DNA of 64,000 bases from Podarcis pityusensis. Taxonomy: Eukaryota. The notes under the pieces were generated by a model. The model was not told the origin of the DNA and made no database searches. It was given only the letters and a program-made list of their open reading frames with translations. The stretch lies in NCBI GenBank assembly GCA_964106645.2, contig OZ067043.1; one strand, written 5' to 3'. Positions 2,311 through 57,366 of this stretch are shown here, piece by piece. Position numbers and translations under genes: made by a program. Every line of letters begins with the position of its first letter. Positions within the stretch are counted from its first letter, which is position 1.

Positions 2311-2568
2311 GAAGAAGAGAAGAAGAAGAGTTTGGATTTGATATCCTGCTTTATCACTACCCTAAGGAGTCTCAAAGCGGCTAACAACTTCTTTTCCCCT
2401 TCCTCCCCCACAACAAACACTCTGTGAGGTGAGTGGGGCTGAGAGACTTCAGAGAAGTGTGGCTAGCCCAAGGTCACCCAGCAGCTGCATGTGGAGGAGT
2501 GGGGAATCAAACCCGGTTCACCAGATCACAAGTCCACTGCTCTTAACCACTATACCACACTGGCTCTC
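2311..2568 (-). mobile_element. tRNA-derived CORE-type SINE (Squam3-like), full length
   Basis: Reverse strand begins gagagccagtgtggtatagtggttaagagc (A box) ... gggtttgattcccc (B box), has core gtgaccttgggctag, and ends in a (CTT)n tail. Confidence 0.8.
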
Positions 2569-2630
2569 AAACAGCTCAAAACAGCTCAAAACAAACAAGC
2601 AAACTCAACAGCTCAAAACAGCTCAAAACA
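2569..2630. repeat. Short tandem repeat (acagctcaaa)n
   Basis: Four imperfect copies directly beside the SINE 5' end. Confidence 0.8.
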
Positions 2631-3616
2631 AATCAATTTTAACCTTTGTGTTGGGTTGCCATTTATTATCCCGTTTCTTTTTGAAAATCCATTGCATAAG
2701 TACACCTTGTTCCATGCATGCAACAACTTAGTTGAATCCTGCCCAATTTGGCATGGTTTTGCAGCAAGGTCTGGATTTTTGTAGCACTAAAATCACTGAA
2801 TGGTAAAGACTGACACTAGTCCACATTAATGTGATCTAAGCTAGTGAGAGCCACTGTGGTGTAATAGTTACTAGACTAAGGCTGGGGAAAAATTGGAATT
2901 CAAATCCACAAAGCCACAACGCTCACCTGAGAGCAACAACTCATGCTGCCTGGAGGTCCTTATAAAAAAGGTGGGATATAAATGTAGCTTAAAAATATAT
3001 AGGCATGTTTACACTTTAGTGTGACTATGACTGGCAGCTATTCGATAGTATCTCTGGCATGTAACAGCATGCTATATATTGCAAAAATATGCATGCTGTG
3101 GCAGGCAGCTTGTGATGTATTCCTGAAAATACTAGGTGGTCAAGAGGAGAAGCAAACACAGAGAACTTGAGCAGAATGCAGGGAGAAAAAGAAAAGTCTA
3201 AATGGGACAATTGCACTTAGAACAAGATTTGAGAGGCAGTTCTCCACCCAGCAGGAAAGCTCCAAGGCTTTGAATATTCCTCTCTAGGACTGTTCACTAA
3301 GAGTCCTCCAACTCTGCCCCAGCATCTAGCTAGCTGAAGGTCTGAGTATATTTGATTTATGGGTTGGGTATATACAACACTTAAATCCTTATTTCTGTAT
3401 CTGGCACAACTTTGAGACTGTTTTAAAAGAGTTCTGTATGTGAAAGAATAAGTGTAAAACAAGATATAGCAAGCCCTTTAAAAAGAGGAAAAGTTGCTAA
3501 ACCTCAACTACAAATTGACTAGACCAGAAGCTTGGTGTAACAATAAAATTGCAAGCACACTTGCAAAGCTAAGCAGGGTCCAGCATGGTTTCAAATTGGA
3601 TGGGATACCAAGTGCT

Positions 3617-3690
3617 GAGATTCCTGCATTGCAGGGGGTTGGACTAGATGATCCTCGTGGTCCCTTCCAACTATACAATTCTATGATTTT
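3617..3690 (+). mobile_element. CR1 LINE 3' terminus
   Basis: gggggttggactagatgatcctcgtggtcccttccaactatacaattctatgatt is a typical CR1 3' end. Confidence 0.75.
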
Positions 3691-4758
3691 ATCTGGTCCA
3701 GTTAATTTCACCAATCCAGAATAATTTATAAGACAATAGGGCTGCATTTATAAACATACACTTAAATGGGAGTAACCTACTAGGACTTATTTCTGAGTAC
3801 ACACATATAGGATTGCCCTATGAGAGAGAAGCAGCTGCAATGAAGAAAACAGAGTGAACTCACTTTTTTCACAGTGCAAAATGGTGCCTGTACATCCATT
3901 ATTTTTGTTAATAGCTGCAGACCAACCAATGCTAAACTGGAGCTGGTTCTAAAACAGAGGTCCAGAAGAAATTGCTCCATGGAAATAAACAGTTGGTGCA
4001 GGCATGTTTTTTCTTTAGTAAGGTTACACCACAGCAGGAAGAATGGAATTTTATAAACAATCTCATACTTTACATTCTATAAAACATCAAAGCCACTTAC
4101 AGATTTATATGACACAGGTCAGTATAATTTATTCTCTTCTCAGTATACTTTATATATGTTTATTTCATTTTTTGATATATAATTTGGGTATTTATTACAA
4201 GGAGGAAACTGCATTCTGATAAACTCTGGAATGAATTCTCAAGACAAAAATAGCTAAATGTGGGAATTAACTATCCAGATTTCTAAACCGCACAGATTCT
4301 AGGTTGCATGCTAGAATCTATCATAACATGTGAATTATGAACATCAGCTTCACAAAGAACACCTTTTAGCTGTTTTTCCTTCATCCTGTTTCTTGTTGGG
4401 AAAAAAGTAACAGAAAGATCTGGATCTTTTAAAAATAAATAAATGAACAAACGTTGCCTGTAGAAATGAAATGAGGAAAAACATTTTGACTCCAGATCCT
4501 CTGTTCCATGCCAGATTTTATAAAATATGCTATGTCTTCTTGCATCCTCATCCTTCCTCTGATTTTGTATAATCCGAACTATAACCCAGCATTATACACC
4601 GTTTTCATACAAATTATCACCACATCACTGCCTCGGACTGAGGAACGTAGCCTTCATGACCTATGACTGGCTGTGAATGACAAATCAAAAGTCAGCGTTT
4701 CAGAAATCAGCTGGGTTTTTTTTCCCTGCTGAGCTGCAGCAAGGAGAGGGAAGGGAGG

Positions 4759-4780
4759 ATGAAAGAATCTGAAAATAAAG
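4759..4780 (+). CDS. DNAJC6: DNAJC6 alternative first coding exon 1a (MKESENK + first base of Gly)
   Basis: aggATG AAA GAA TCT GAA AAT AAA G|gtaagg. Strong donor, phase 1, matching the exon 2 acceptor. Resembles the recalled N-terminus MKDSENKG of the human auxilin reference isoform. Confidence 0.88.
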
Positions 4781-7700
4781 GTAAGGAAAACCTATAACTA
4801 GGAACATGTACAGTGTTATAAACATATGATGCTTGAGTCATTTATGTGGTACTATTTACAGTCTATTCTGCTGAGTAACCATTTTAAAATTGCATCGTGC
4901 ATCTTGAATGCAAACAAGCCATGTTTAAAAATAAATGCAGTTATATAATATGCTAAGGGATAGACTTTGTATGAAATCTCCTTCTTATTTGAAGCACAAA
5001 TTAGGATGCCAAATTTGTTAGTTCATAGCTGTGAATGCAGTATGTCTTACAGTATGACTGCAAGGCTTTCTTCAAATACCAATGTATATATTTACAGTGC
5101 AACCCTAGTCATGTCTACTCAGAAGCAAGCCTTACTGAGCTCAATGGGACTGATTCCCAGGTCATTGTATATAGGATTGCAGTCCTAATGTTTAATGTTA
5201 TGTTATCTGATAATATTGATAATAGCAAAAAGAAATGGGATGTCTCCCCATTAAAATATTTATGGAAGCTTGTGGTCTACAGTAAATAAACAGACCTCTA
5301 CTTCCTTTCAGTGTGTGTATGAAAAGTATCCAGTATTTGAGGATACTTGACCTTCATAATTGTATCAGAGTGATATTGCAAAACTGAACATAATTTTCTT
5401 CTTTAGGGGAAAATACTTTTAAATCTACATTACAAATCACCTGACATTTATGTCACATTATTTCTGCTTTGAAATCTGAATTATCAAAACTAAGGCTGCC
5501 CAAAGGAGTGAAGGGAGATTGGTTGAACTGTGTGCTTGTCACAATGTTGCTGAGACAGTGATGTGACATTACTGCCACTATTCGATGCTATAGGTAGGTT
5601 TATTCCACAATTTTGCATTGAAGTGTTTGGCCTTTCCTATCATGTTTCTGATTTATATACAAATGTCCTTTCAATTTAGCAAAAAATAATGTGAGCAGTA
5701 TAGATTCAGATGCCGAATTTGGGATGAGGCCTCCATCTTCCAATGCTCCTTGAGGGAAAGAGCTGTTTATTTCAGTCGCAGCTTCATCTGAGAGGTACAG
5801 CCTCTTTCTATCGCCTCATGTAATTTAGATGCTACCAATAGCAGCCTGAAGACAATGCAGGGGTGCACTATATTTAGCCAGCTGTGACAGCATCTGTTTC
5901 CTTCTGATCCAAGAAACCCAAAGCTCATATGTGCAGCATTTATGAATTTCTTTAACCTTTAAGGAGAAACCATGGTGGTTTTTTTGCCCTTGAAGCTCAT
6001 GGTTGTGTGTGTTTGGTTTTTTTACTGCATGCCAACGGTAGTATAAGCACTCTCATTTAATTGCTGACTGACCTAATCTGTTCTGCATACGGCTTTTACC
6101 CAGCTGCAGATTAATCCTCAGAGTAGGAAAGAAAGCCTAGGCCTCAAGTCTATATACACTGTTTCCCACTCAGAGTGGAGTTAGAGTTGTTGCAGAGTCA
6201 GGCATGTTAAAAACAACATCATGGATTTTCCCATGCAGCACAAAATCTATAGGATATTATATATTACAGAAGAGGTAATTGTATGAAGGAGATCTGTAGA
6301 GACTATTTTGAATGAATCATAAGCCAGTCATATGTACACACATTAAACCATCTTATCAATTGAATTATATAGAAGCTGCAGTATATATTCACTTCTTCAC
6401 CTTCTACTTTCAAGGTGTAAATACCTTTGTATGAGAATTGCATATTGCATAATATTACATTAGCATATTGAATTAAAAGGTGAAGAATAGTTGGTACCTT
6501 TAGCTGAATCAAACAGTAAAGCTTTTCTGGGACTGTACTACTTCACACTACCAGAGGACTTGCACATTCAAAAGCCCCTCCAATAAGAAATAAAGCTGCC
6601 CAGCACATACGTACAGAAAAATGGTGTACCAGGGTGAACGCTCCTAGGTTTCGAGACTTAATTCTCCCTTACATGCTAGCTTTGTACATGAAGGGAAATA
6701 TATAATGTGCTCCCGCTCCTATTGTTGTACAGCCCAGGAAATCTTTTCAACTTGATTCTGCTGAATGTATAAACATGTGCCCTGAGAGATTATTTAGGGA
6801 TACAAAGAAAACATTCCTGACTCTAGATCAAAGTGATTAGGGCCAGTCTCCTCATTGGTACATGACTAGGGATAGACAAATTTGTCATTTTTTATATCTT
6901 TCAGTTTTCCAAACTTCGGTTCTCAATAGTTTGCAAGTGTTTTTTTTTTTAAGTCCCCCTAATATGCACTTTGTACTGTTTTCCATTTTGCCCAATACTG
7001 ATTGTTGCAAAGCTATTTCCCCCAATAAAAAAAAATGTTCATTTTTTTTTTTACTAATATATGCATTTTATGCACACTTGTCCTCAGTATGTGGAAAAAT
7101 ATTTTTTTACACATCACTTGGCAAACAAGTACATTGCAAAACTCTGAGAAGTGCGACTTTTTGAACCATGGCTATTTTGTTTCACAAATTCACTAGATTT
7201 GCCTTTAAATGTGATCTGAATCAAGTTTCTCCCCCATCTCAGAATATGACTCATTTGGCTTGTTAGTGTCAAAGGGGCACTTTCCCTGGATTCTATGACT
7301 CACATTCTCAAGCCATCTGGCTGCATTACGTAAACTCATCCCTTGTTTTAAAGATACCTCTGACTTGGTGCTCTTTTTAATTATTTTTGCTGCATTTTGG
7401 TCACACAGTGCAAGATGCATGATGTGCTTTGTTAACCAGTAATTGGACTGGCTACATAGAAGATCCTAGCTCAGGCTGCAGAGTATACTTACTCAGGACT
7501 CTGAGCTCGACTGAACATAGCAGGACTTACTTCTGAGTAAACATGCATAGGACTACATTGTCAGTGCCTGAAGCTACATTGCATTTTCTGCAAGTTGAGC
7601 ATAGTTCTGTAATTCTTTAGCGCAGCCAAATAATAGAAACTGTCACTGTCAAAAAAAAAGCTTTAGTATTTTGTATTTTGATGGGGCAGCTTCTGTTAAT

Positions 7701-7783
7701 TGTTGACTGCTATTTTATATTGTGTTTTACACAGTGTTTTACTACAGATCATTTTGATTTTTTATAGTTTTAAAATCATTGCT

Positions 7784-7873
7784 CATATCTGTCAACTTTC
7801 CCCTTTTTTTAAGGGTAATTCCCTTATTCAGAATAGGATTCCTCGCAAGAAAAGGGAAAAGTTGACAGGTATG
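7784..7873. mobile_element. 90-bp hAT-type MITE
   Basis: TIRs catatctgtcaactttcccc / gggaaaagttgacaggtatg. Perfect 8-bp TSD tcattgct (7776-7783, 7874-7881). Confidence 0.85.
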
Positions 7874-8627
7874 TCATTGCTCCTAGTTGTCTCACACAGC
7901 AACAATTCCCAGAGTGGTTTAGCAATTTTTGAGGGGAATAAGGATCTCCTAAGAACACTCAGCGTCCTTAGCTAACTAGACTTCCCAGGATCCTTTGGAG
8001 GAAGACACAACTGCTTAAAGTGGTATGACACTCCTTTAAATGTATAGTGCAGATGCGGCGACAGTTACACTTATCCTAGTACTACACATGGACATTTTAA
8101 AGTACGTCCTACCCTATCCTTTTGTGGATTTTTAAAGGTTAACTCTGGAGAAATCCTTTTAAAAGGTATTTAAAACATTCACAGAACACATACACACGCA
8201 GAGTACTTATGAGGTGAACCAAGGCCTACTCTCTCCTTTGTGTTGTTTTTTTCTTATTTTAACACTTATTTCAACACTTATTTCATCCCATTGCACCTCT
8301 ACCGTGTACTTTAAACACTATAAAAATGGTACAGAAAGTTACTGCATGCCACTTTCTATGTAATGGTATGTACAAAGAGCATTTTATGAACAACAAGATG
8401 ACTGATCCCATGTACTGATGGCTATTTCAGAATGGCACAGGATACCACGTACTCAGTTATTATGCCCCACAAGTGGCATAAGGAACATACCAGTACTATG
8501 TATATGCCATTTTCCATACATACATTGCCCATTTGTACATACAGTTACACACTTCCTGCAGAAAAAAGTGTTTTTACTTAAGCCACGATGCCTAAAAGCT
8601 GCTCCAAGCAGCTTTGCACTGTTACAG

Positions 8628-8628
<1 letters not shown>

Positions 8629-8657
<29 letters not shown>
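8629..8657. repeat. (AATC)n microsatellite
   Basis: About 7 tandem copies. Confidence 0.9.
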
Positions 8658-8660
<3 letters not shown>

Positions 8661-8925
8661 GAGAGCAAGCCCTCAGTTGACCTCCTAAGTACAATGGCTG
8701 AACCAACCCTCAGAAAGAGTCGTAGATCTAAAGAACTAAACTGCAGGTCTGTGGCCTGTTTGCACTGGTCTGATGACTGGTTTCGCAGCAAAATCTGGTA
8801 TTCTCTGACATCCCAAATCTAATCTAATATCTGTTTACCCTAACTGGAAACAGTTCTCCATGCTCTCAGATACAGACCTTTCCTCAACACCTGCTACTTG
8901 ACCCTTTAAAAACAAAACAAAACAA

Positions 8926-9054
8926 TAACCCTATGAGGTAGGTGAAGCTGAGTGACTGGCCCAAGGTCGCCCAGTGAGCTTCATGGCTGATTGGGGATTT
9001 GAACTCTAGTCTCCAAGGTTCTAGGTTAGCACTCCAACCACTATACCACACTGG
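8926..9054 (-). mobile_element. CORE/MIR-like SINE 5' fragment
   Basis: gactggcccaaggtcgcccagtgagcttcatggctg...ggatttgaactc...aaccactataccacactgg, homologous to the 2311-2568 element. Confidence 0.7.
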
Positions 9055-9530
9055 TTTTTATTATGAGCTCCGCCCATGTGGCCCAGATCTTCCCAACATT
9101 ATCTGAATAATGTGGGAGAAGCACAAGCTGCAGTGAACCCCACACCACCCAAGGACAGACCTTAGGACATGGTAGGCCATGCTAAAAAGAATACTAATAA
9201 TCATTTCAAATATTATTCATAAGGACAAACTAATGGTAGTGTGGGTCCACCACAATCATTTGTGTGCACCCAATTCTAAAATGCATGTTTCAGGACTATG
9301 GAATCTTGCCCACCCTCCCATTGCCACCACTACTGCAAGGCTTACTTCTAACAAGTCATTCCTCCAATATCACATTTTCATCAGCCAGGCTCCAGTTTGA
9401 AAGTGAATCCAGCTAGGAGATAAATATTTTGGGTGGTAAAAGGCAGGGTGCTGTGGAAGGAGTGTTCTGAACTCCTTTCTTTACTGAGCCAAAATAGGCA
9501 AGCTGGTAATGAGATGTAAGTGTTGTTGTA

Positions 9531-9882
9531 GGGACGCGGGTGGTGCTGTGGGTTAAAACACAGAGCCTAGGGCTTGCCAATCAGAAGGTCGGCGGTTTGA
9601 ATCCCCGCGACGGGGTGAGCTCCCGTTGTTCGGTCCCTGCTCCTGCCAACCTAGCAGTTCGAAAGCACACCAGTGCAAGTAGATAAATAGGTACCGCTCC
9701 AGTGGGAAGGTAAACGGCGTTTCCGTGTGCTGCTCTGGTTCACCAGAAGCAGCTTAGTCATGCTGGCCACATGACCCGGAAGCTGTACGCCGGCTCCCTT
9801 GGCCAATAAAGAGAGATGAGCGCCGCAACCCCAGAGTCAGTCACGACTGGACCTAATGGTCAGGGGTCCCTTTACCTTTACC
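9531..9882 (+). mobile_element. Sauria SINE, full length
   Basis: Begins gggacgcgggtggtgctgtggg, has the tRNA-like head and conserved body (gtcatgctggccacatgacc), and ends (tttacc)n. Flanked by TSD taagtgttgttgta / taagtgttgtcgaa (12/14). Confidence 0.92.
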
Positions 9883-10319
9883 TAAGTGTTGTCGAACCAA
9901 TTGAGAGCAGTAGCCATAAAGCTATTGTGTTAAATATACATGCAAATTGCTAAGAAAACTCAACATGGTCACATCTGATTTCAAAAGAGGAAACCACCCC
10001 GAAATGAAGAGATTGGTAAAAAGCCAAGGGGGTCAAATCTCTCTGAAATGCTTGGGAGTTGTTTAAAAACACAAAATCAGAACTGGCATGCATACTGCAG
10101 ATCAGAAAAGGTATCACCAAGGCCAAGAATATGCCAGTATACAAGCAGAGTAGAGGAAGCTATTAGAGACAATAAGGTTTCCTAAAAATGGAAGTTTTGA
10201 ACATGCGAGAACAGAAAGGAACAGAAATTTGGCAAAAGAAATGCAAGCAGACAATAAAGGATGGTAAAATTACATAAAATTTTAGGAGCACATTGCTAAA
10301 AACATAAAGACAATCACTG

Positions 10320-10480
10320 TCAACAAAATCTTTAAATATATTAGTAGTAGGAGAAGGAGAAGGAGAAGGAGAAGTAGTAGTAGTAGTATAGGGAGGGAGT
10401 GATAAGGGAGTTAAAGGCGTGCTGAAGGAAGATAAGGTTTGCTGAATGAATTATTTTCATCTGTCTTCACGGCAGAATAT
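10320..10480 (+). mobile_element. Degenerate CR1 ORF2 internal fragment
   Basis: Translates to FKYISSR...LNELFSSVFTAE, resembling the CR1 ORF2 linker motif. Interrupted by (GGAGAA)n/(AGT)n repeats. Confidence 0.55.
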
Positions 10481-11379
10481 ATCAGATCCTCCAAGTGTCC
10501 CTATTTTCCGAATTCTAATTGGATCTGTGAATGTCCCGCTTTCCCTGCCAGAGCTTGTGGCGGCTATCGGCGCCAAAAAAAAAATATTATTATTTTTTGC
10601 AAACAGAGCCAGGAAGTCTGCGCGCGAGTATCACTCTTCGCTTTTTCCTATCTCTAGGGACACGCCTGTTCTCGGTACAAAGACTTGCTCTGCCAGCAGA
10701 GCCAGGAAGTGTGCACACGAGGATCACTCTTTACCTTTTCTCTATGGTGCTAGCCTGGACTCATCATCCACCGGTGGATCCAAGGCTGCTATCTAGACCT
10801 GTCCGAGCTGTGGCATGTCGGTGCCCAGTAAGCTGCCCATGAGCAGGCGGGAAAGGCTCATTGAGAAGGTCCCTCTCTCTGTCTCCCCTTCCCCCCTTTA
10901 GGGTCTCTCGTATACTCTGTGTGCCTCAGTGCCAGGATCCCCACCCCACCCTAGTGCATTAGCCATTGATTGCAGATAAGCTGACTCTATTCTGCAATAC
11001 TAGAAAGATCTAAGAAAAGAAAGAGCGACCTGCTAGTAAAAATGATCTCAAGCTCTCTCAGTCCTAATTAAAAGTTATTTGTCCAATGGGCATTTGGATA
11101 GCTAGTTAAAACACACATCTCTCATGTATGGTCAGGGAATGCCCCCCTCCTCATTTTTTTGTGTTAGCAGACTGGAGAAAGTAAGTACTGGGGCTTGGGA
11201 GGGTGGAGAGTGGAAAAAATGGCTGAAGCACTGGGACCCCATTTCCCCCCTAAAAGCTTTGCTCCCTTCCTTTGATCACTGTACTGCTTCAATCTTCATA
11301 TTGTGTTTCTTTTGGCCACTATGTGACCCCCGAGCCAAGGAGATAAGTAACAATACAAGCTTTAGAATACATCTGAAGG

Positions 11380-11529
11380 CAGCCCTGTATAGAGGTTTTT
11401 ATAAAAACATTTAATGTTTTTTGTTATGCTTTTTTTATAGGTTGGAAGCTGCCCAGAGTAGCTGGGGCAACCCAGTCAGTTGGGCAGGGTATAAATATTA
11501 TTATTATTATTATTATTACTATTATTATC
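11380..11529 (+). mobile_element. LINE (L2-like) 3' end with (TTA)n tail
   Basis: ggaagctgcccagagtagctggggcaacccagtcagttgggcagggtataaa(tta)n. A reverse-complement relative lies at 34300-34610. Confidence 0.65.
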
Positions 11530-14500: not shown

Positions 14501-15890
14501 AAAAAAAAAAGATTTATATACATATATTCACCCTACCAATAGTTTTTGCAAAAGTCACAGAGGTTAGCAGCTGTAAGTCAACTGCATTGAGCCCTATAAC
14601 TGCTTAAATTGAGCTGATATCATTTGTGTTACTCCCAAACTGAATAGTAAGGCCTTGACAGTCTTGGAAAATGAAGCACCCTAGAGGTACGGTTAGGACT
14701 GCAGCCTTTGTAAACAGAGCTGTATAGTAAGGCTATAGAAAAAATGGCTCAAGCCATAGGTGGCAGGTTTAACAGACAGAGCCTGTTTCTACAGCACTAT
14801 CTTTTCCTTTCAGAAAAGGTTTCTTAATGGACCACATTAGGGCATGCAAAGGAACTCAACTTATTTCAGCAAGTTAGGGCCACTTCCTTCCAGTGATATG
14901 GTTGTTTTTGCTTTTCTCTTTCTGCAGATGGGCCACCTATTGCCACATTTTAGGCTGCAAATCTGTGCAGTCTAAAAACCCTGTTTAACCCAGTAAGACT
15001 TACTTTTTAACTAACATAGCACCCAGTGTTTTAACACCCACATGTACCTTGATGCTATTGTTGGACAGATCCCCATCTACTTCACTTTTCCTTTAACATT
15101 CCAGTTATCCTGATTACAAACTCAGGGTAGCTCTAGGCTTCCCTTCCCCTTCCTTTGGTTGTAGTCTCTCTCTTTCTCTCTCTCGCCCCTTCCTAAAACA
15201 AGGGAAAGAGGCGGCAAAAAATAAAATAATAAATAAACCTGGGAGAACTGGGACGTGAGAAAGTGCTGGAGTCAAGAGTGGAGGGAACATACAGGGCGTG
15301 GGAGGGAGCTGGGAAAACTTCCGCTTTTGTGTAATTCTGCCGGCTGACTTAAAACCGAGGAACACTCCTGGGTTGTGGAACGCGGAGCTCTGCAGCTTTC
15401 ACCGTCGGGATTCAGTAGGGCTGCTCCTGCTGTGGAGCCCCCGCGTCCCCTTTCTGCATGACCATTGAGATTGACAGTTGCATGGCTGGCGATGCTCTGT
15501 GCACGGAGAGGAGAAGCCCAATGGCAACGGAGGCACGGCTAAGGCGCCTCCCGGATTGCTTCCGGGCACCAGATCTCTGGAAAGCGATGTGCTCCCTAAT
15601 GGCCAGGCCCCGGCTCTCGTCCGTGGAAGGCGAGGCGTGCCTTGCCCAGGCTGCTCCAATCGCTTCCAGGCAGAGAGGCGGGGACGGCGGGTAGGCTGCC
15701 TCCGCGCGCGCATACACCCACCAGCTCGCTCGCCAGGAAGGCCCTGCTGGGGCTGCAGCCCCCTTTCTGGGCGTGTGGCTGCCTCCGCCTCTCGGGGAAG
15801 GTTATGCACTTGTGATTCCCTTTCTTCCTCCTCCTCCTCCTGCCGCTTCCTCCTTTATGCCGGTGGAGACCCTCTGTGCCTGACTAGCCC

Positions 15891-16128
15891 ATGAGCCTCC
15901 TCGGGAGCTACCGGAAAAAGACCAACAATGATGGCTATGAATCTTTGCAGCTCGTGGACAGCAACGGTGACTTCTGCGGCAGCCGGGAGCGAACCGGCGG
16001 CGGCGGAGGCGGCGGCAGCATCAGCAAACAAGGGGTGATCCCCGCGGTGGTGGCGGCAGCAGCAGCAGCCCGGAGCCCAGCGCGACAGCAGCACCAGCCG
16101 CTCGACTGCAGCACCATGGACAGCTCAG
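15891..16128 (+). CDS. DNAJC6: DNAJC6 coding exon 1b (238 nt)
   Basis: MSLLGSYRKKTNNDGYESLQLVDSNGD...RSPARQ...STMDSS(G) matches the long auxilin isoform N-terminus. Donor cag|gtagcg, phase 1. Confidence 0.95.
16107..16127 (+). promoter_or_regulatory. RE1/NRSE (REST-binding) element within coding exon 1b
   Basis: tgCAGCACCATGGACAGCtCa matches TTCAGCACCATGGACAGCGCC at 18/21, with both half-sites and the 2-nt spacer intact. Confidence 0.75.
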
Positions 16129-18384
16129 GTAGCGGCTTTAACTTCTTGGCCGGGGAGGGGAAGGAGGCTGTGGGTGATGGGAGGCTCTGGTTACAGCCCC
16201 ACCTTGCTTCCCAGCAAGATCTGAGAGGCCCAGGCGTGCTCTGCTGCTGGGAGGATGGCAAGGCTGGCCGGGGTCCAGGCCATCCTCCGGTTTCTGAGGC
16301 AAGGAAACCTAAGAGGGCCCGGTGTTGCAATTTTAAAGAGCTTTGAAGACCAGCTAATGAGGAAACGTATCCCAGCTGTCACTCTCTTCTGTTAATTGAT
16401 GGGGAAAGGAGTGAGGAGAGATGCAAAGGAACTGCTGAGGTCAGTGTATTGTTCTCAGGATGTGTGCTAAGTGGGCAGGAGAGTGATGGAGGGAAGATGG
16501 CTTAGGTTTCATTGGGTGGTGTGAAGAAATCATAGTAAACTCAGGGTGATCATTGGAAGAAGGAAAATGTATTTTTCAGAAAGTATTGGGTGCATGTCCA
16601 GTTTATCTTATGGCGAACATGCTTAAGAGCAGTTTTAAAAGGACCACATTATAACAGTGGAAAAAGTGCTTTGGGTCATTGTTTAATGGGGGTAAAATAT
16701 AACTGAATATCAGATGTGGAATAAATGTTGATGTTGTGTTGGAAGTGAAGGCTACTAAACAATGGCTCATTTATTTCTGCAAACAACTATCCTGAGTGGC
16801 TTGGCCAAAAGAGTTCTTTTGTTATCTGTAAACGCTAACAAGCATGCTAGTATTGTCTCTAGATCTATTGATAGGGAACAACACAAGAATAAATTAGGAA
16901 ACACTGCTTTATTGGCAGGTAAATAAAGTTGTGCCTCCTCACAATAGCAAAGGGAAGGAAAGCTTGAATGTAATTTTGCTGGAATGTTTTCTTCATGACC
17001 AGTGGAATTAGACTGGCATGCTGCATGAGTTGGGAAACTACCCCCACCCATTGCTAAATCTTCCAATTGTATAGCCAGATGGCTCACAGGATTGGTAATG
17101 AGAAGCTATGCACTTCAGGGGTCCTGGTTCAGATTGGCCTGGATTGCTGAGAGTAGTTATTGATGGATTATCAGCTATGTACTGAAATGTGTGGATGGGT
17201 GTGTTCCTTCCTTCCTTTTTTTTTTAAAAAAAAGGGTATTTCAATACTATTGATACCAGCTGTGTTTGCTAACAATTTTATCCATAGCTCTGTTTCATTT
17301 CTGACGCTAGCTTCATTTTTCCTCCAGAGAACATCTTCTTGATGTATAAGCAGTTTCCACAAAGTGATGTGCTGCCAGTCCGTTTAAAAATATATTCTCA
17401 TATCCAGTGAAGTGGAATCCCAAAGCACAACTGTTAGAGTGAGAATATGATAGTCTACAAGAACTTAGTCCCCATCCTTGAATTTATGTGGTGTGATTAA
17501 CTTGGTTGATATAAAGAGGATTGGACTTGAGAACTGGTTTATTCACTGTCTCAAGGTTGGGGGTAGAATTCCAGATGCTTTACATGATAGAAGAGTAATA
17601 CACATGATGAACCATATGTCCTGAATTTAGGAGTCCAGTTTATAATACAATACAACTGAACTAATGGTTTATTTTAAAAAATAGACTCCATGTAGGTTTC
17701 AAAATGGTAGAAGAAGAACTAAGGCATCTGCTGTGATTACTCCTCTTCCCCCAATGAGCTGAGCAGATGTTAAATTGTAGCCTGTGCTGGCTAGGCCTGA
17801 TGGGAGTTGTGACATAAAGTACTTGGAGGACACCAGGCTGGGGAAGACTAGTATAGTCACACACAATGCGTTACCTCCACTTGGTAATTAGCAGAAGGCC
17901 AAATCCCAGTTTACATGCATCAGTTCGTTTTAAACAAACAGGTGTGTTTAGTGTTAGCGTGCACCCACAATGGAATAACTTTGATCTAAGAAAACTTTGT
18001 CTTGGTCTTGTAGAGGTAAGGAGTATTTTTTCCTAACTGTTACTGATCAGAGAAGGATGTAAGGGGTAAAACTTTGGTTTCTATTGGAATAGAAGGAGAA
18101 ATGAGGTCTGTGCAAACTCATAAATTGTGCTGGACTTTCCAGGTACAGTTCAACCCTCTTGACCCTTGCCCATCTTGGCTTTTTAAAGCTAACCATAGGA
18201 GATTAATAGGGTCCAGGGAGTGATTGGTGCTTCATTGGAATGGGTGAGGAACCATTTGTCTTGAAGTAGGCGGTGGTGTGTCCACTCTTTAAGAGAACCT
18301 CCCTAGACCTGGAATTCAGTGGCAAATATCCTCTTTTTGGAGAAGGTGCTTGAGAGGATCGTTGCAATTGAGCTTCAGACATGC

Positions 18385-19300
18385 TTGGAGGAAAATGAAT
18401 GTCTGTATCCATTTCAGTCTAGCCTCGGGCCCATTCATGGCCCTAAACTGTCTTGATCACAGTGGTTGATACATTTGTTAGAAGAGAGATGGAGGGGAGT
18501 GCAATCCTGTTTATTCTTTTTAGAAGCTTTCGATACCATAGACCATAGCATCCTTCTGGAGGAGCTCAATGAGGTGGTGTTTGAGGGCACTGTATTTCAG
18601 TGGTTCCACTCCTACCTCCAGGGTCATTTCTAGAAAGCATTTATGGAAGGCCACTGACATCATTGGAGTTCCCTGTGGTGTTCTATAGGATTCCAACTCG
18701 TCCCCCATGCTATTTAACATCTATATGAAGCCCCTGGGAACTGTCACCAGCAGTTTTGGAGTTAAGTGTTACCAATATGTGGGTAGCACTTCTATCTCTC
18801 TGTTCCATCTGAATCAAGAGAGGTGGCTGAGGTATGAACGCAATGATGTGGGCCAACAATTGGAAACTGAAGCATGAAAGGACAAAGGTGTTATGTGTTC
18901 CAAGTCTTGAGTTGAAGAGGTTCTGTACAGAGTTGCAGTCCCCTGGAAGGATCAGGCTTGTCGCTTGGGGGTACTCCTCAACCCAGTGAAGTCACCTGAG
19001 GCCCAGGTAGCCTCTGTGGCCAGGAGTGCCTGTTTCCAGCTCCAGCTGGTTTGTCAGCTACACATTGTGGGTTTCACCTTGATCTGGTAACTTCCAGATT
19101 GGATTATTGCAGTGCTCTCTATGTTGGTCTGCCCTTGAAGTCAACTCAGAAGCTTCAGCTGGTTCAAAATGCAGGGACCAGATTACTGGCTAGGGTTTTC
19201 TTTAGAACTCTTGTATAATCCCTATTTTAAAACAGCTACACTAGTTGCCATTTTGTTTCTGGGCCTAGTTCAAGATGCTCACATTAGTGTTGAAAACCCT
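18385..19300 (+). mobile_element. L2-clade LINE reverse-transcriptase fragment (degenerate)
   Basis: Recognisable AFDTIDH, QWFHSYL, GVP..S..SPMLFNIYMKPL and LQLVQNA motifs, with frameshifts and stops. Confidence 0.8.
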
Positions 19301-20559
19301 ACATGACTAGTTTTGAGACTACAATTTCCATCATCCCTGACCACTGGGTCCTGCTAGCTAGGGATCATGAGAGTTGTAGGCCAAAAAACATCTGGAGTGC
19401 CAAGTTTGAGGAAGCCTGCTATAAAGTTTTCAGTGAATGCTGGAGACATACATCTTTACACTGGCCTTTGACAACTGAGAAGTGTGTTTCCAGAAGGCAT
19501 CCTATTCCTGTGACTATAATTTGTTTTAACAGGTTTTATTACCAAATATCCAGATCTGCAAAACAGATATATTCAACACTATTGTAGCGACTCATTTAAG
19601 ATTAGAGGAGGAGGTGTAACTTACCCTTACTTTGTTGTTCTGTGTAGTCCAGTATTTGTATTTTATAAATTAATTAAATATTATTTAATTTATTTAAAAA
19701 ATAATAGAGAATTTTAAATTATTGTAACCTGCCCTGGGGCTTGCTGGTGAAGGCAGGTAATAAATGTAATAATGCTGATAATAATACAATCCTAGAAAAC
19801 TTGACAGAAACGAGTGCAAAAGTTGGCTTAATTTTTCATTAAGAGCATTTGCACTGAAATTAAGTAAATGGTAAAGAGGAAAGCCACAGGGGGCAAAGTT
19901 TTCAAATACTGAATCTGCAGCTTTGAAATCTAATGCTTTTGAGTTCTGAGGCCACAATCAGAACACCACAAATTAATTGGTGTTCCCTGCATTAAGGAAG
20001 AGACACTCTCTTTCTTCCTCCACCCTAGTTCACTATTCTTCTGTGCTCTGCCCATGGGCAAACGTATCTGTAAGGTATAATGTTTTTTAGTATTGCATGT
20101 ATGTGTCTGTATTGACGTGGTGGGATCGTATTTCTGCAGATCTATAAGCTCTAAGCTTCCAAAGAATATAGGAATCAAGTGTGTTGGCGCTTGATAAATG
20201 CCACAAAGTAGTATCCACACACTGGGGTAAAATGAAAGGAAAAACTGAATATAGATTTGTCTAAAGACATATAACATGTCCTATGAACTTGAGGCAGGTA
20301 AAGAGATCTTAAAATTAAAATACATATATGCTTCCATTTTATTAGAATATGCTTAGGCTCATAATTCCATGGACCTCTGAGAATAGGCAATTTCAGGCCA
20401 GCCCTGGGAGAACCTCTGTGTCTCCTTGCTGGTTATATTTTTTGTCTTGTGCATTCTTGAGATGGCTGAGTTATGATGGAAAACATGACAGAAATCTTTT
20501 AATACCTTTTTGTCCCAAGACCATAACATTCTAAATGGCAAATCCAAATACAGTTAATA

Positions 20560-21200
20560 ATGACGTAAGACCCCTTCTGGATCAGGCCAAAGGATTGTCT
20601 AGTCCAGCATCTTTTTTTCCAGCAGTGAAAAACCAGATGGCAATGGGAAGCCCACAACTAGGACATGAGGGCAATACCAACTCCCGATGCTGTTCTTCAG
20701 CAACAGGATTTCAGAAGCACATTGCCTCTGATCTTGGAGGTAGTCATTTTGGTTCTTTTAAAATTATTGGATAGATTTCTAGTACACTGTTTAGAGTGTT
20801 TATTTTCCTTAAATGGCTTACAAGAGATCAATAAACTACATTAAAATTCAAGGCTTGAATAGCAATAAACAACTGAGAAAATTAAAATACAGTAGTAGAT
20901 AAAATAGTCATCAGTGGTATGCAGCCATCATGGCTAGTAGGCTTTATCCTTTGTGAAATTGTTTAATCTAGGTTGGAGGCCATTACCACATTTTGTGACA
21001 GTGAATTTAATAATTTAACAACTTGCTGGAAGAAGTCCTTCTCTGTCCTTAGTCTTCTGCCAGTCAGCTTCTTTGAGCGACCCAGTTCTAGTATTATTCA
21101 GAGAACAAAAAAAATTCTCTGTCCACTTTCTCTACAGACATAATTCTATACACCACTATATGCCTCCTCTTTTTGCCTCTCTACCAAGCTAAAAAGCCTT
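20560..21200 (-). mobile_element. CR1 LINE 3' region, interrupted near 20750-20910
   Basis: tctggatcaggccaaaggattgtctagtccagcatc is the reverse complement of the CR1 end at about 28520-28570. Confidence 0.6.
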
Positions 21201-21459
21201 GTGAGGACAATGATGCTGTCAGTACAGATTCTAACAGTGCCATCCCATATACTTTGGTTTGGAAGCAAGTTCCATAGAATTCAGTGAGACTTTCTCCCAG
21301 GGAAGTAGGTGTAATATTGCAGTTTTAATCATGGGTAGCATATTACTAGAAAACATTGCCATTGAGAGGCAAACCTGCCATGCTATGCACTGTATGAAAC
21401 TGCAACTGTTTGGCATTTATTTAGTTTTAAAAGTGTGCAATACTAAGCAACAGGTCTAA

Positions 21460-21840
21460 GAATCGGGAGAGGGGGTTGCCTGTTCTAGATGGGGTCACAC
21501 TCACTCTGAAGGAACAGGTATGAAGCTTAGGAATGCTCTTGGGGTCATCTTTGTCCATAGAAACTCAGGTGACCTCAATGGGGAAGAGTGCTTATCACCA
21601 GCTTTGGCTGGTACGTCAACTATATCCTTTCCTGAACAGGGATAATTTTGCCACTATGTGTGCCTTCCCTCATGGCTGGTCTGGAGACTGCAGCTGGTGC
21701 AGAATGCCACAACCCCAGTGGTGAGTGATGCCTCTCATCAAGCACATATCACACTAGTGCTAAAAGATATGTGCTGGCTGCCTTTAATCACTGAACCAGT
21801 TTTAAGGTTCTACTACTAACATATAAGGTCCTGAACAACT
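21460..21840 (+). mobile_element. L2-clade LINE fragment
   Basis: SAYHQLWLVRQLYPFLNRD is homologous to SAFHQLQLVAQLCPYLDRN of the 23150-24470 element. Confidence 0.75.
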
Positions 21841-23149
21841 CCGAACTATGTTACATTTCCCAACTCCGAACTATGTTACATTTCTGGTAAGGGCATTAAT
21901 ATCACTTCTAATACATCATGGCTACATTTCTATGTGCATACAAAATACTATAACTGCTGCATGCGATGCATATGCAGGCCTAGCAGGACATAGATTAACC
22001 CAACTGCGGCTAGAAATTTCCAAACCCACTTCCTCTATGTAGCTTCCATTGTCTCAACCAAAGTGCCTCTGACTTAGCCTGCTGCAGATTCCTTTCCCTC
22101 CATGAAGAGCTTTGTTCCCTCCAGGTATCTTGTGTCTTTCCATCTCCCTTCCTTGCTTTTAGCAGAAAGGCAAGATGGGAACTCAGCCCAGAATGCAAAG
22201 AACTACTGGAAACCAGTTCTGTGAGCATCTACCAGATCCTTCAACTGCTTGTTCAATACCTCATGATCAGTGGGTATTAAGGGACTTCTGAACATCAAAA
22301 AAGACCAACATACTACAATTATGTCCGCTTCAAATTTACTGTATGCATACTGCATAGCTAGTATACTTTCAAAGTAATCAAAGTAATCAAACTGAATGCA
22401 CTAGGATAATGAAAAGAGGCATGTTACATAAAACAGATAGCAATTTATGCCTGAATATAGAAGCCATGTGGTGAATATTATACAGTTGTTTAAGCTGCTG
22501 CATTTGTTCTGCAACAGCTGGTGTGTGTGGATGCATTGTTCAATTGATCACTAGCAAAAATGCTTCTGACCCCAAACTGCTCCTGGGATAATATTTTTCC
22601 CCTGCTCTCGAGATTTTGCATTGTAAGCTATTATCAGTTCTTGCAAACCTTCATGCTTAAAAAAATATACATGAGAATATCTTCATTTTTATTATTTTCA
22701 TTCATTTCATTATTCTAATTTTAAAAATGTCTATGGTGAGCTACTCTCTGAAATTTATAGGCATTGCATACCAGTTCTAGTACTTCTATGAATTTAATTA
22801 TCTTCCTTTTTATGATAAAGGCACATGCATATTTCCAGTTTATTACTTCTAGCAATACATCTTCTGCAGGCCTTGCTAAAAATTCTAATAATTCAGTTGT
22901 AATAACTAGACAAATGAGAGTATGTAGAAGACTGTACAGTTCTTTACCATCAGCACCCGTCAGATTCTGAACAGGTATGAAAAAACATTTCCACTGATTT
23001 CCGTAAAGCAGTGCTGATGACCATAAGCAGATAATTTTTTTTGCCATGGTGTGCTTTGTTTTTTTAGGGGTGCTGGTAGTAGTGATTTCAATATAATTGC
23101 TATATGAGGCCCTAGGGGTGGACATTGGCAATCTTTTGTAATGGTTGAA

Positions 23150-24470
23150 GAGCAACATTTTTGCCTGCTGTAAAATAAAGGCACCAGCTGAGCCTCTCTG
23201 GGAAGAGCATTCCACAAATGAGGAGTCACTGCAGAAAAGGCCTGTTCTCTTGTTGCCACCCTCTGGGCCTCTCATGGAGGAGGCACACAAAGAAGGGCCT
23301 CAAATGATGATAACAAGTTTTGGGTCAGTTCATATGGGGAGAAGTGGTCCTTGAAATATTGTGGTTCTGAGATGGTTCTGAGCTGTTTAAGGCAGCATTT
23401 CCCAACCTTGGGCCTCCAGCTGTTTTTGGACTACAACTCCCATAATCCTCAGCTAGCAAGACCAGTGGTCAGGGATGATGAGAATTGTAGTTCGAAAACA
23501 GCTGGAGGCCCAAGGTTGGGAAACACTGGTTTAAGGCTTATAGGTGAAAACCAGCGCTTTCAATTGGGCCCAGAAACTAATTGGCAGCCAATGCAGCTTG
23601 GCCAGGATTGGTGTAGTATGCTCAAAACCATCTTGCCCTGGTGAGCAACCTAGCTGTTGAATTCTGCACTAGCTGAAGTTTCTGAACTGCCTTCAAAGGC
23701 AGCCTGATGTATAACGTGTTGCAGTTATCTAGCCGAGAGGTTACCAGACTACAGACAGCAGAAGTTATGCTATTCCTGTCCAGATAGGGGCACAGCTGGG
23801 CCACCAGCTGAAGCTGATGGAAGGCACTCCACATGAGTCTTAAGCAACAGCAATGGATCCAGGAGTAACCCGAAGCTGTGTGCCCACTCCTTCAGTGGGA
23901 GTTTAACACCATCAAGAACAGGCAACCTCCTATCCATCTGGTCTATGGAACCACCCACTAACAGTGCCTCAGTCTCATCTGGATTGAGCTTCAGCTTGTT
24001 GCCTCTCATCCAGCCTATTAGCAAGGCAAGACAAAAGTCCAGCACACCCACTCCCATACCTGCAAATGTAAAGAAGAAGTAGAGCTGTGTGTCACCAGCA
24101 TAATCCAAAACTCTGAATGAGGGAGGTTTTATGTACATGTTAAACAGCATGGGGGATAAAATCAAACCCTGAAGAACCCCACATTGAAGGCTCCATGGGG
24201 CCAAGGAGCACTCCCCAAGCAGCATCCTCTGGAAATGATCACCGAAGTAGGAAAAGAACCATTGCAAAGCAGTGTTACCCACCCCTAACTTGGACAGCTG
24301 CTCCAGAAGGTTACCATGGTTGATAGTATCAAAAGCCACTGAGAGGTTGAGGAGAATTAATAGGGACACATTTCTGCTGTCTCTTTCCCAATGGTGGTTA
24401 TCATACAGGGTGACCAAAGCAGTTTCTGTGCCAAAACTGGGCCTAAACCCCAATTGAAATGAATCTAGAA
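23150..24470 (-). mobile_element. L2-clade LINE RT and 3' region (degenerate)
   Basis: ORF 23770-24453: GFRPSFGTETAL, LLNLSVAFDTINH, GVLQGLILSPMLFNMY, YAGDTQLY (degenerate YADD), NKLKLNPDETE. Confidence 0.9.
23393..23528. mobile_element. 136-bp palindromic hAT-type MITE inserted in the L2
   Basis: TIRs cagcatttcccaaccttgggcctccagctg / cagctggaggcccaaggttgggaaacactg. 8-bp TSD gtttaagg (23385-23392, 23529-23536). Confidence 0.9.
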
Positions 24471-27213
24471 ATGCAAAATATCACTTTAAATTTGCTTTCT
24501 GAAACTTCATAGCTGCAGGGTGGACTATGAGAACAAAGATCCTCTATTTGATTGACAAAACTAGATTCATTTACAAAACACTGACCATTCAATTAGTCCA
24601 AAATACCTTCAGACCAGGAAATGTCAGTGAAGATAAGACCTTTGGAGTTGGGTTTCTCATAGATTAATCTCAAGAGCTAGCAGTGATCAGCTGAAGTAAG
24701 CAAAGTATTCTTTGATTTTCTAGAAGTTAACATCTCTTGTCTTTTTATATTTGCTTTTCAATAAGCCAAGAGATATCTCTGTATCAGTGAAAACAAAATA
24801 AACCAAAACAATCTGTTAGACAATGTCTCGTCTGTCTTTCTCCTTTTTTAAAACAGAAGAGTCCATTTCATAAGCCTCTTTGTTTCTAAGAACTGAATAG
24901 CACCGCCAGATCGCTTGCACATCTTTTGCCATTGCATCATTAGTGCTTGTTTTTACACAGTTTTGCCCTTGACTGTGTTTCGTATTGTTGTTGTTTAAAT
25001 GACAGTTCTAAGCACAAATTTAATTGCTTTTTTGCTAGTGAGATAATAATTTGAAAAAGTAAATAAATATAAGATTTTAGTGCACATAAAGCTTAAGTAA
25101 CAAGCTGATAGAAATGTCAAGGTAATGAGAAAAAGTTAAACATTCCCTCTCCCTTTTCCTATGGTAGGTGAAATCATGCAGGATTATAACTTAGTCTGCC
25201 ATCAAGGCTATTAGAATCAGAACAGTATTTATTGTTATTGTGTTATCTAATTAAGGTCCGTAAACCATAGAAGAATAAAACAACAATGTACAAGGCAATT
25301 AAGACTTTCATAAAGGTGTAGATAAGGCTATTAACAGCAGCTGCATTGAATTAAAAAAAAATCCTTCCAATGAGATGTTAGCAACTGACTTAGGAAAGCA
25401 TGCCTGTTACCAAATATCCTAGTCTTATTTCACAACCAAAGTAGCAGTTCTTTACCAAAAAGTTCAGAGTTAACTAGTTTATAACTGATGTACTACATAC
25501 CGTAATTGTTTGTGGTCTCTGTTGAAAAAGTGGAAAGAAGAATCAATTGCACTAGCTATGCCCAAGAGGCTCTTTGGATCCCGGCTATATTCTTGGCTAT
25601 GCAAAAAGGACTTTCAAATCTGTAGATGCAATGCTAAGCACATAGAGTGTTATGCAGAGGTGCCCTAGTATTTAGTAGAGCTTTACACTCCCACCCCCAG
25701 GTTGCCACTGTGCTGTCTGGTGCACAGCATTGTGGCCAGTATGTTAATTCCAAGGCAGGCTTTCCGCACCTTCCCTGTAAGCATTTGTAGGGGGAATCTG
25801 TGGACCCCTGATGAAGAGGCTACTGCCCAGAAACACAACAACAGTTAGCTTTTGGGTGCTTGCAAAGGAGGTGTGGAAGAAGAATCTGCCTTGGAATAAA
25901 TAGCACAAAGGTGGCCCAGTGGGGGACCGAGCACTCCATTAGGGCACCTGCACATACTACTGTGTAACCGTTTAACCCTGTAAGTTCTGATTCTCCTCAC
26001 AACATCTGCACCCATTTGCTCATTCTTAATTAGCAGCTGTGCTGTTACAAACACACCTTTGTTTTATTTTATTCTTTTGTGTTCATGTATGCTCCAGTCC
26101 AAGGATCCATTGCCCATTCAACTCTGTGGATCTGTTTCCTCCTTTGGAGTGAATGGGAATGCTGATGCAGTCATTCACTCAATATATGTGGTGTAGCTTC
26201 CACAAAACAAATTGCAGATTGACAAAATGGTTCAAAGAGAGCTGTGCAATGGGCTTTTAAGTAGGGGAACTTGCATAAGAAGAGTGAGAGATGTTAGAAT
26301 GCTCTCTCTGTGCATGGATATCATTGCGCTTGCTGTAAGAATTTATCACCGCTGGGTTTCAGATCATAAGAACCCAATGTCTGGATACATGTCAGAGTGT
26401 GAATTTCCCAATGTAATTCTGTTAAATTCTCTTTAAATGGGTAGTGTATTCAAATGCTGAAAATATCTGATGCCACAGGCTTAGCCTGTCCAGGGAAGAT
26501 GGACTGATAAACAGAAATTCTTTTGCATTTGTCAGAGTTGGGCATGGTTGATAGTATGCCTTTGTTCCATTCTTTTAAATGCCTTGCAACTTTACTTGAG
26601 ACATGTGGTTCTGTATTTAGCAAGCCATGCATTAGTGATATAATGACTCAGATGGGCTTTGTCACATCAACACCTGCCTCTGAAAGCTGTCTCAGGTCCT
26701 GCAGTACATCCTGCTGAGCAGGAACCTGAAAACAGGCTTTCCTATCTGAAAAATGCTTCTTTCTGTGATACCCTGTTTCCTGTTGCTAGTCTCTCTCTGT
26801 TCCAGGTACATTCACCTCTGATTCTGTCCAGCCCACAGCCCACAAGGAACAGAACAAAACAGTACAGTACAGTGTTTGTTGCAGAACTGGTGCTCCTCAT
26901 ATGTGCCTGGTTTTGTAGTGACCATGCAATGTCATCGGTAGCCTCTCTTTTTGCACCATTTAATCTGATTTTTTGCTTTCCAGGAAAAATTCTGTTAACC
27001 TTTCTCCCCCCTAAAACAAAAATTGTAACATTCTTTGATTATGTCACTACCACAGTTAAATAACTCTGATGCATCCTGTTGTTTACCAGAGATTGTGACT
27101 AACTTGGTTAGCATTTACATCTCCATTTGCTCGTTCCTAACTGGAAGCTGCATTGTTGCTGCTGATGTGTGCTAAGACCTGGTGCTTGTGGTGGTTGGTA
27201 AATCTCCAGCAAA

Positions 27214-27217
<4 letters not shown>

Positions 27218-27250
<33 letters not shown>
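27218..27250. repeat. (TG)n microsatellite
   Basis: About 16 units ending about 30 nt upstream of the exon 2 acceptor. Confidence 0.95.
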
Positions 27251-27251
<1 letters not shown>

Positions 27252-27279
27252 GTCTTATGTCTGGTTTTCTTCTTTTAAG

Positions 27280-27430
27280 GTGCCTCGTCTCCGGACATAG
27301 AGTCTAACTATGGGGGAGGCCTGTTAGACATGATGAAAGGAGGAGCAGGGAGACTGTTCAGCAACTTAAAGGATAACTTGAAGGACACTCTTAAAGACAC
27401 TTCTACGAAAGTTATGCAATCTGTTGCAAG
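27280..27430 (+). CDS. DNAJC6: DNAJC6 exon 2 (151 nt)
   Basis: ttttaag|GT GCC TCG TCT. ASSPDIESNYGGGLLDMMKGGAGRLFSNLKDNLKDTLKDTSTKVMQSVA. Donor AG|gtacta. Confidence 0.96.
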
Positions 27431-55779: not shown

Positions 55780-56460
55780 AGGGAATTTCTGAGGGAAATT
55801 CCCCTCACTTCGACTGCCTTGGCGCCGCCCTGAGGCAGCTCATAGGCGTGAAAAGAGTCTTAGTTTCTTTTTTTAAAAAAAGAAAGTGCTGCTTTTTTGT
55901 TGTTGTTCCCTTCCCCCTGTGAGAAGGGGAAGGGTTAGAGCAGGAGCCACGTGAGCAGAAGGCGGAAGAAGTCGACACATTATTCTCCGCCTCCTCTGCT
56001 TCGTCGTCCAGCGAGAAAGAGAGAGCGAGCAAAAAAGGCGCCCCGCAAAAGAAAAGGAGACATGGCGGGGATTAAAGGTATCGGGCCGCTTCTCTCCTCG
56101 CGCCTCTGTCTCTCTTTCTCTCTCCCTCCGCTTTCTCCGTCGGCGCGGCTCTCTCGCTCCGCCGTCGCTATGGCTACCTCGCTCCCGCCCCTGCCCGGGG
56201 AAAGTTCCTCTGCAAATACGGCTAAAGGAGCCTTTCGCTGTGCAGCCCCCTCTCGGTTGTCGCCAACAACAGACTTCTCTCTGGGGCAGCGTAACTTTTT
56301 GCACTGCGCCGGCGCTGGGTCTCTTTCTCCTCCTTCCTACGCCCTTTTCCAGGGTGTGGATGTGAAGCACGCGGGGTGGGGAATCCGGAGGCGCCGGCGA
56401 GGGCAGGGCTCTTTTCTCTGGAGCAACTGCCGAGAAGGGCTCTGGCCGGTCACATTTTGC
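55780..56460. promoter_or_regulatory. CpG island / promoter of LEPROT (boundaries approximate)
   Basis: GC/CpG-rich segment around the LEPROT start codon. Contains E-box CACGTG (55948-55953), ETS-like GGCGGAAG (55961), kB-like sites and an X-box-like motif. Confidence 0.85.
56062..56077 (+). CDS. LEPROT: LEPROT coding exon 1 (16 nt)
   Basis: gacATGG CGG GGA... reads ATG GCG GGG ATT AAA G|gtatcg = MAGIK(A). Good Kozak context. Confidence 0.93.
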
Positions 56461-57149
56461 TGAAAATTCCTTTCCCTTGAAGCCTATTTAAAAGTTCAGG
56501 AATTTTCCCAGCTGCTGTGACCTACCCCAAACCATTGTTTTACATGCGATCGGTTTTGATTCGAAAGCAAAAAAAGAAACCCACTATAGTTCTTACCAGT
56601 GCTTTTCTTCTAAAAAAAATATGTTTATGGGTACTCTCATTTTCCTACTCATTGAAATACTGCCCCTCAAAGGAGGTCAAACTTAGATTCACAAAATTTT
56701 TAGGGGTGTGCGTCCCCCCCCCCGAAAAAAAGCACTGGTTATTACAAACTTTTGGACTTTTTGTTTATTGTAGTCACCAAGGCAATGAGTATACAGCTCA
56801 TGCGGAGTGTGGTACTTCACCAAGTTTAAAATCTCTCCATCCCAATTGCAGAAGTATAATTTAAGTGATCAGTGAAGCCCTTAAAAAAAGAAAATTCCAG
56901 CAAGAGGGTCCCATCCTGGAAGTATGGCTGTCGAAAGTGAAACAAACGTTATTTACTTACTTCATAAGATTTATACACCTCTTTATAGTAAAAACACAAT
57001 CTTCAAAGTGGTTTGCAAAAAAAAAAAAACAACAACAGTAAAATTAAGGAAAATTCAACAAACCCTACTTTAAAACACACAAAAGTTAAAATACTAAAGC
57101 ATTGAAATTACCTCGCCTTTCTCTGCATCCAGATAGGCTTGTCTAAATG

Positions 57150-57366
57150 CAAGAAGTAGTGACCGCCACCAATTTGGGATAACTTAAGGAAGAGAAGACA
57201 AATTCATGGAGAATCAGGCTGTCAGTGGATACTAGCAAGTGGTGGTGGTGGCGGGGAGAGCTCTTGCACCCAGGTCCTGGTTCTGGGCTTCCCATAGGCA
57301 TCCCATTGGCCACTGAAGAGGATGTTGGGGCATTGGTCTGATCCATCAGGCTCCTCATATTCTTAA
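57150..57366 (+). mobile_element. CR1 LINE 3' fragment
   Basis: gacaaattcatggagaatcaggctgtcagtgg ... ggtctgatccatcaggctcctcatattctta, same family as 28025-28572. Confidence 0.65.

Follow-up and report, generated by a model that had tools for sequence, protein, structure and literature searches.

The window analysed here, a stretch of 64,000 nucleotides from the lacertid lizard Podarcis pityusensis, contains the whole DNAJC6 gene. The database cluster representative P0001, named Podarcis auxilin, maps onto it exon by exon on the + strand from position 15891 to position 51793, and the reading frame from 15891 encodes 79 residues that are 100% identical to P0001. The identification of the gene as DNAJC6/auxilin 1, made initially from the letters alone, is borne out by this match and mapping. 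The features around the first exons are as follows.

4759–4780, + strand: exon 1a, an alternative first coding exon (7 codons and one base; own donor; 11 kb upstream)
about 15200–16200, no strand: CpG island (GC 0.55–0.66, CpG observed/expected 0.64–0.69)
15891–16128, + strand: DNAJC6 exon 1b, coding part (79 codons and one base)
15928–16038, + strand: three out-of-frame ATGs (15928, 15931 and 15937) with a short open reading frame that stops at 16038
16107–16127, + strand: canonical 21-bp RE1/NRSE in sense orientation, over codons C-S-T-M-D-S-S (long-form residues 73–79)
16116–16118, + strand: in-frame internal ATG in the middle of the RE1 (A at −3, G at +4)
16126–16134, + strand: phase-1 5′ splice site (GT at 16129–16130, exon end at 16128)
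27280–27430, + strand: exon 2, with an acceptor common to exons 1a and 1b

Joining 16128 to 27280 gives the frame of the database proteins, and the two neighbouring joins fail. All seven residues of exon 1a agree with database isoform P0083, and with this short alternative first coding exon at 4759–4780 the name 'exon 1b' is correct. The protein encoded by exon 1b consists of a conserved N-terminal block followed by a low-complexity G/A/Q linker. The first ∼ 27 residues of the long form (15891–15975) are highly conserved from fish to mammals and contain the stretch Y-E-S-L, which presumably resembles a tyrosine-based sorting motif. The CpG island covers exon 1b together with its presumed promoter. 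Ahead of the ATG at 15891 come two short upstream open reading frames, one with its ATG at 15804, the other running from an ATG at 15857 to a stop at 15883; they probably lie within the 5′ untranslated region of exon 1b. A CpG-rich patch at 9400–10000 (GC 0.51–0.53, observed/expected 0.63–0.65), located between exons 1a and 1b, may represent a repeat or a regulatory element. Another CpG island, stronger than that at exon 1b, lies at 55800–56600 (observed/expected ∼ 1.0), and the exons that come after it (to 59293, and at 63856–63969) match the C-terminal, Vps55-family part of the fused models P0102 and P0132. The segments 55800–59293 and 63856–63969 are probably the promoter and gene of LEPROT/LEPR adjoining DNAJC6, an arrangement also known from mammals.

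The 21-mer at 16107–16127 matches an ATGG-type RE1 consensus at 18/21 positions and an ACGG-type consensus at 17/21. The 18/21 match, the sequence and the coordinates given by the initial annotation were all confirmed. Against the published pattern NTYAGMRCCNNRGMSAG (PMC4430910), 16 of 17 positions agree and position 2 alone fails. Both half-site cores are exact and are separated by the canonical 2-bp linker. When the two linker bases were left free, this was the only match with three or fewer mismatches on either strand of the 64-kb window, where the next-best candidates carry seven; no match at the same threshold was found in any of 100 dinucleotide shuffles, nor near exon 1a in the same scan of the window. 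A second left half-site at 16089 was set aside as incidental, since it arises from Gln-His-Gln codons.

The exon end had been described as 'quadruple-coded', by an RE1, a Kozak start, a coding sequence and a splice donor. The overlap of Kozak context, RE1 and coding sequence stands: the ATG at 16116 is in frame with that at 15891 and, with A at −3 as well as G at +4, its context was verified as strong. However, the four signals nowhere coincide on one base. The Kozak context (16110–16119) lies wholly inside the RE1, and an ATGG-type RE1 in sense orientation includes such a context by construction, so that the strong ATG context is a by-product of the RE1. The donor was correctly placed at the end of the motif, as judged from the GT at 16129–16130 and the in-frame join to 27280 seen in the database proteins, and it shares with the RE1 only the last two RE1 bases, a weakly specified tail where the site itself deviates from consensus. 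Four independent codes are therefore not supported, because the ATG context belongs to the RE1 and the donor merely abuts it. The donor fits 6/9 positions of the U1-pairing consensus, and the other DNAJC6 donors fit 5–8 of 9, their positions being approximate. The read-through translation of mammalian contigs (P0052, P0053, P0060 cluster) continues after the exon with G-S, as in the lizard, which suggests that the non-consensus intronic bases of the donor are common to lizard and mammals.

Occupancy of the orthologous human site is documented in Table S2 of PMC4055426, where a strong exonic DNAJC6 REST peak is listed in 16/16 cell types (rows 2949–2964; 30 of the 33 DNAJC6 rows covered). The summits lie at hg19 chr1:65,775,605–619, with a median of 610. 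Peak scores in the same table range from 1,087 to 11,409 across the 15 non-neuronal types, as against 103 in neurons, although comparison between libraries is not strict. The human site was placed by way of a published variant in which hg19 chr1:65,775,558 equals c.130 (p.G44R) in exon 1 of NM_001256864, as given in the supplement of PMC8215754. The primate proteins P0049, P0052 and P0044 carry Gly at residue 44 and A-S-T-M-D-S-S at residues 58–64, and, on the assumption that human numbering equals theirs between residues 44 and 64, the orthologous 21-mer falls at c.172–192, that is at 65,775,600–620 with its centre at 610. All 16 published human summits thus fall within the orthologous 21 bp. 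In Table S2 of PMC4499139 the human ES-cell peak is labelled conserved, and a conserved mouse Dnajc6 peak is given at mm10 chr4:101,550,769–944; the mouse peak is known by label and interval and is not base-anchored to the RE1. The initial annotation had proposed REST ChIP-seq at human and mouse DNAJC6 exon 1 as a check, and on the human side the summits above answer it. It had also placed the peptide in human auxilin, and the three primate proteins contain it.

The primate residue before the first Ser is Ala, so that position 2 of the pattern is mismatched there as well, yet binding is strong; the mismatch at position 2 of the lizard RE1 is therefore probably tolerated. A pattern screen in Xenopus tropicalis (PMC4430910) is uninformative here: neither dnajc6 nor auxilin appears in its five supplementary files, but the pattern demands a T at position 2, which the frog Ser cannot give. 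A second, weaker human DNAJC6 REST peak is intronic (hg19 chr1:65,805,5xx–65,805,9xx in the peak tables cited) and is labelled non-conserved in mouse; no second RE1 corresponding to it was found in the 64-kb lizard window.

Conservation was examined in 143 full-length long-form auxilins picked by hand from 286 proteins, so that a genus is represented by roughly one protein, apart from some paralogues. Excluded were fragments, duplicate isoforms, cluster members that are unrelated and forms that begin with a different first exon. Two of the three queries behind the protein set carried the motif, the third being an exon-2 query that lacks it, and the tree used for counting changes was built on the downstream domain. 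The set comprises teleosts, Polypterus, coelacanth, amphibians, reptiles, birds and mammals, and so spans a split of ∼ 430 million years; no shark or lamprey auxilin was present among the protein matches. Across these 143 proteins the RE1 peptide is in frame in the long form. The five columns S-T-M-D-S have undergone 3, 0, 1, 1 and 0 changes on the tree (5 in total), as against 26–43 in each of the 12 upstream columns, where anchoring was ungapped and insertions and deletions inflate the counts. Conservation begins two residues before the Met, and 12 different residues occur immediately before the first Ser. That this residue is never K, E, Q, M or W (0/143) was dropped as evidence, these residues being hard to reach by one base from the codons used. 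In the folded region of the protein, 7% of five-residue windows are as conserved as S-T-M-D-S. Residues just after the exon 1b junction are dropped in many teleost forms; the teleost auxilins (P0134–P0252) fall into two types that differ by the presence of five residues at the beginning of exon 2, a difference that probably stems from an alternative acceptor lying 15 nt further downstream. A 1b-type start without the motif is seen in one gene model from a pheasant (P0108), retrieved with the exon-2 query.

The few substitutions within the core were compared with the RE1 pattern. Met is replaced by Thr in two voles (P0268 and P0272) and a related cluster, and separately in P0053; this change is one base from the other common RE1 core, and the voles without the Met keep the other four core residues. 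The Asp to Glu change in coelacanth and the Ser to Arg change in one Aldrovandia paralogue are one-base changes that the pattern allows, and the two Ser to Gly changes, in duck and Pelobates (P0034 and P0097), break it. In all, 4/6 substitutions are pattern-compatible, a count that includes the off-tree P0053, against an expected one third (13/39 possible changes); with p = 0.10 this is suggestive only. The proposal that the peptide may be kept for its DNA motif as much as for the protein is upheld in so far as the protein pattern fits constraint at the DNA level, which appears likely from these alignments. Thr to Ala and Met to Leu or Val are never seen among the 143 auxilins although the pattern permits them, which points to selection for high affinity, to use of the start codon, or to both. 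The RE1 in the DNAJC6 coding sequence, verified in mammals, is probably ancient.

The paralogue GAK (auxilin 2) and invertebrate auxilin are homologous to DNAJC6 from the start of exon 2 onward and have a kinase domain where DNAJC6 has exon 1b. Among 26 profile-search representatives examined, 17 carry a kinase signature and one resembles vertebrate GAK; the region is covered in 23 representatives, GAK-type or invertebrate, and the motif is absent from all of them (0/23). The lack of the motif in GAK-type relatives agrees with the initial annotation. Human GAK has at least one weak T-cell REST peak among the matches listed in Table S2 of PMC4055426.

The ATG at 16116 is a possible start of a form 75 residues shorter, and 11 database gene models, all of them predictions, begin at this Met. 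The context of the ATG at 15891 is weak, and one of the three out-of-frame ATGs that lie before 16116 has a strong context. These ATGs speak against simple leaky scanning; if the internal ATG is used, a transcript that starts inside the exon is the likelier route. In voles the internal Met is dispensable, since it has been lost.

The claim that REST restricts the CpG-island promoter to neurons is not supported by expression data. None of the 11 supplementary files of PMC11015551 contains DNAJC6, although they include the full changed-gene lists of four T98G and two HEK293 REST-knockout clones; SNAP25, SYP, AP3B2 and SCG3 are strongly up in the same clones. That study used duplicates, 3′ Tag-Seq and a log2FC of 0.58, and its gene-level 3′ counts do not separate promoters. 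Auxilin 1 was reported in HeLa, Daudi and A375 cells and weakly in T98G and HCT-116, the isoform not being resolved (PMC2628426), and HeLa and HCT-116 both appear with a DNAJC6 REST peak in the peak table described above. According to a review, DNAJC6 RNA is ∼ threefold higher in oligodendrocytes than in neurons (PMC13230680). Together, the lack of gene-level derepression in six clones, the protein in five non-neuronal lines and the oligodendrocyte RNA make a classical on/off silencer that confines exon 1b transcription to neurons unlikely. Such a silencer would still account for a peak that is common, strong and motif-bearing and that scores far lower in neurons, and for the restriction of auxilin 1 to brain on a tissue blot in PMC2628426. 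Moreover, section 10 of PMC4055426 states that genes with motif-bearing or common REST peaks are 2.6 or 1.9 times likelier to be unexpressed, about twice as likely for peaks of this kind, and the 3′-end counts of the knockout study would not tell one promoter from another. The supplement of PMC4371837 lists neither Dnajc6 nor the Snap25 control and is uninformative because the control is missing too.

The absence of derepression would also suit the idea that the sequence is conserved for translation and protein reasons, namely a real internal start in strong context plus an N-terminal MDSS peptide, with REST binding by chance and without a selected regulatory effect. The Kozak window of the Met coincides with the two conserved codons in front of it, which counts against a pure RE1 account, the Met is kept in 141/143 proteins despite the degeneracy of the RE1 linker, and the 11 gene models that start there point the same way. 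Nevertheless, this explanation is quite unlikely. The voles lost the Met and retained the other four residues, position −6 is A where the Kozak consensus has G, three out-of-frame ATGs precede the internal one, and the residues past the junction are dispensable in teleost forms; start contexts are seldom so invariant. Splicing signals can be weighed in the same way, since exon ends are known to bear splicing constraint and the donor, at 6/9 consensus positions, leans on the exonic CAG. An exonic enhancer combined with a donor of weak intronic pairing might then drive the conservation, with REST binding incidental. This is highly improbable: the invariant block fits the RE1 half-sites and ends abruptly at the left edge of the RE1, the residue closest to the donor has changed 5 times, more often than any one of the core five, and at 5–8 of 9 the other donors of the gene, at their approximate positions, leave that of exon 1b not unusually weak.

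The reading that we favour, at a probability of roughly two in three, is a joint one, in which REST binds the lizard RE1 and damps the exon 1b promoter, and in which this DNA role explains much of the near-invariance of S-T-M-D-S. Judging from human occupancy and the motif, REST likely binds the lizard site at 16107–16127. Recruitment of SIN3/CoREST-HDAC corepressors is established for REST generally, and the bound protein would bring them to the CpG island a few hundred bases upstream. The promoter-specific effect would likely be to damp the exon 1b promoter, not to switch it off, while exon 1a and other first exons, free of REST, would supply auxilin 1 outside neurons. A promoter-specific damper is proposed because the knockout null, the non-neuronal expression and the enrichment for unexpressed genes all fit it. 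The DNA role of the RE1 likely accounts for much of the constraint on the five residues, which predicts constraint at the codon level, and in many lineages the ATG at 16116 may also serve as a start, which would add a second constraint on the Met.

Parts of this arrangement have precedents. In mouse Oprm1, which encodes the mu-opioid receptor, an NRSE over the translation start is reported to repress transcription through REST (PMC1702488). As at DNAJC6, the RE1 there is on the sense strand with a central ATG followed by Asp-Ser-Ser codons, as read from a cloning primer in the same source. The Oprm1 ATG is, however, the main start and half of its site is untranslated, whereas in DNAJC6 the whole site lies within the reading frame of the longer form, beside a donor, around an internal ATG that voles have lost. 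The 'common' and 'conserved' REST peaks of PMC4055426 and PMC4499139 include that of human DNAJC6 itself, with canonical spacing and in all cell types. In the main text of these two papers, as covered by full-text search, no discussion of DNAJC6 was found, and their relevant passages address neither the codon overlap nor conservation to fish. A REST site over an ATG (Oprm1) and the DNAJC6 peak in public supplementary tables are thus already known. Full-text searches, with most subscription journals outside their scope, returned no paper linking DNAJC6 to REST, and the excerpts of the 2026 review PMC13230680 mention neither REST, nor a promoter, nor a transcription factor.

Transcription-factor sites in coding exons ('duons') offer a second comparison, since codons and binding site share the same bases as in DNAJC6 exon 1b; the summary in bioRxiv 10.1101/2021.09.06.459186 presents the genome-wide claim as disputed for want of verified cases. 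DNAJC6 differs from duons in its long, information-rich motif, in a summit that lies on the motif and in an amino-acid footprint within a low-complexity region. DNAJC6 exon 1b is an unusually clean test case for the disputed idea of transcription-factor constraint on protein sequence, because the motif is long, the summit sits on it, the conserved island stands in a variable low-complexity region and the voles have lost the Met.

A more far-reaching version, which we regard as rather doubtful, concerns the origin of the exon. In this version the RE1 founded that part of the gene. When auxilin 1 lost the kinase domain of GAK, a sense-strand ATGG-type RE1 may have supplied REST control together with a strong start codon, with the preference of REST dictating the five residues since the bony vertebrates split. 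If this were true, Oprm1 would be a second case and 'RE1-born start codons' a way in which new neural first exons arise repeatedly, and vertebrate proteins that start with Met-Asp-Ser, or that carry S-T-M-D-S at an exon end, would be enriched for REST-bound genes.

DNAJC6 is a gene for recessive juvenile Parkinson's disease. Variants in codons 58–64 of the long isoform in humans would pass for silent or benign missense changes, yet the repressor site that they would change is strongly bound.
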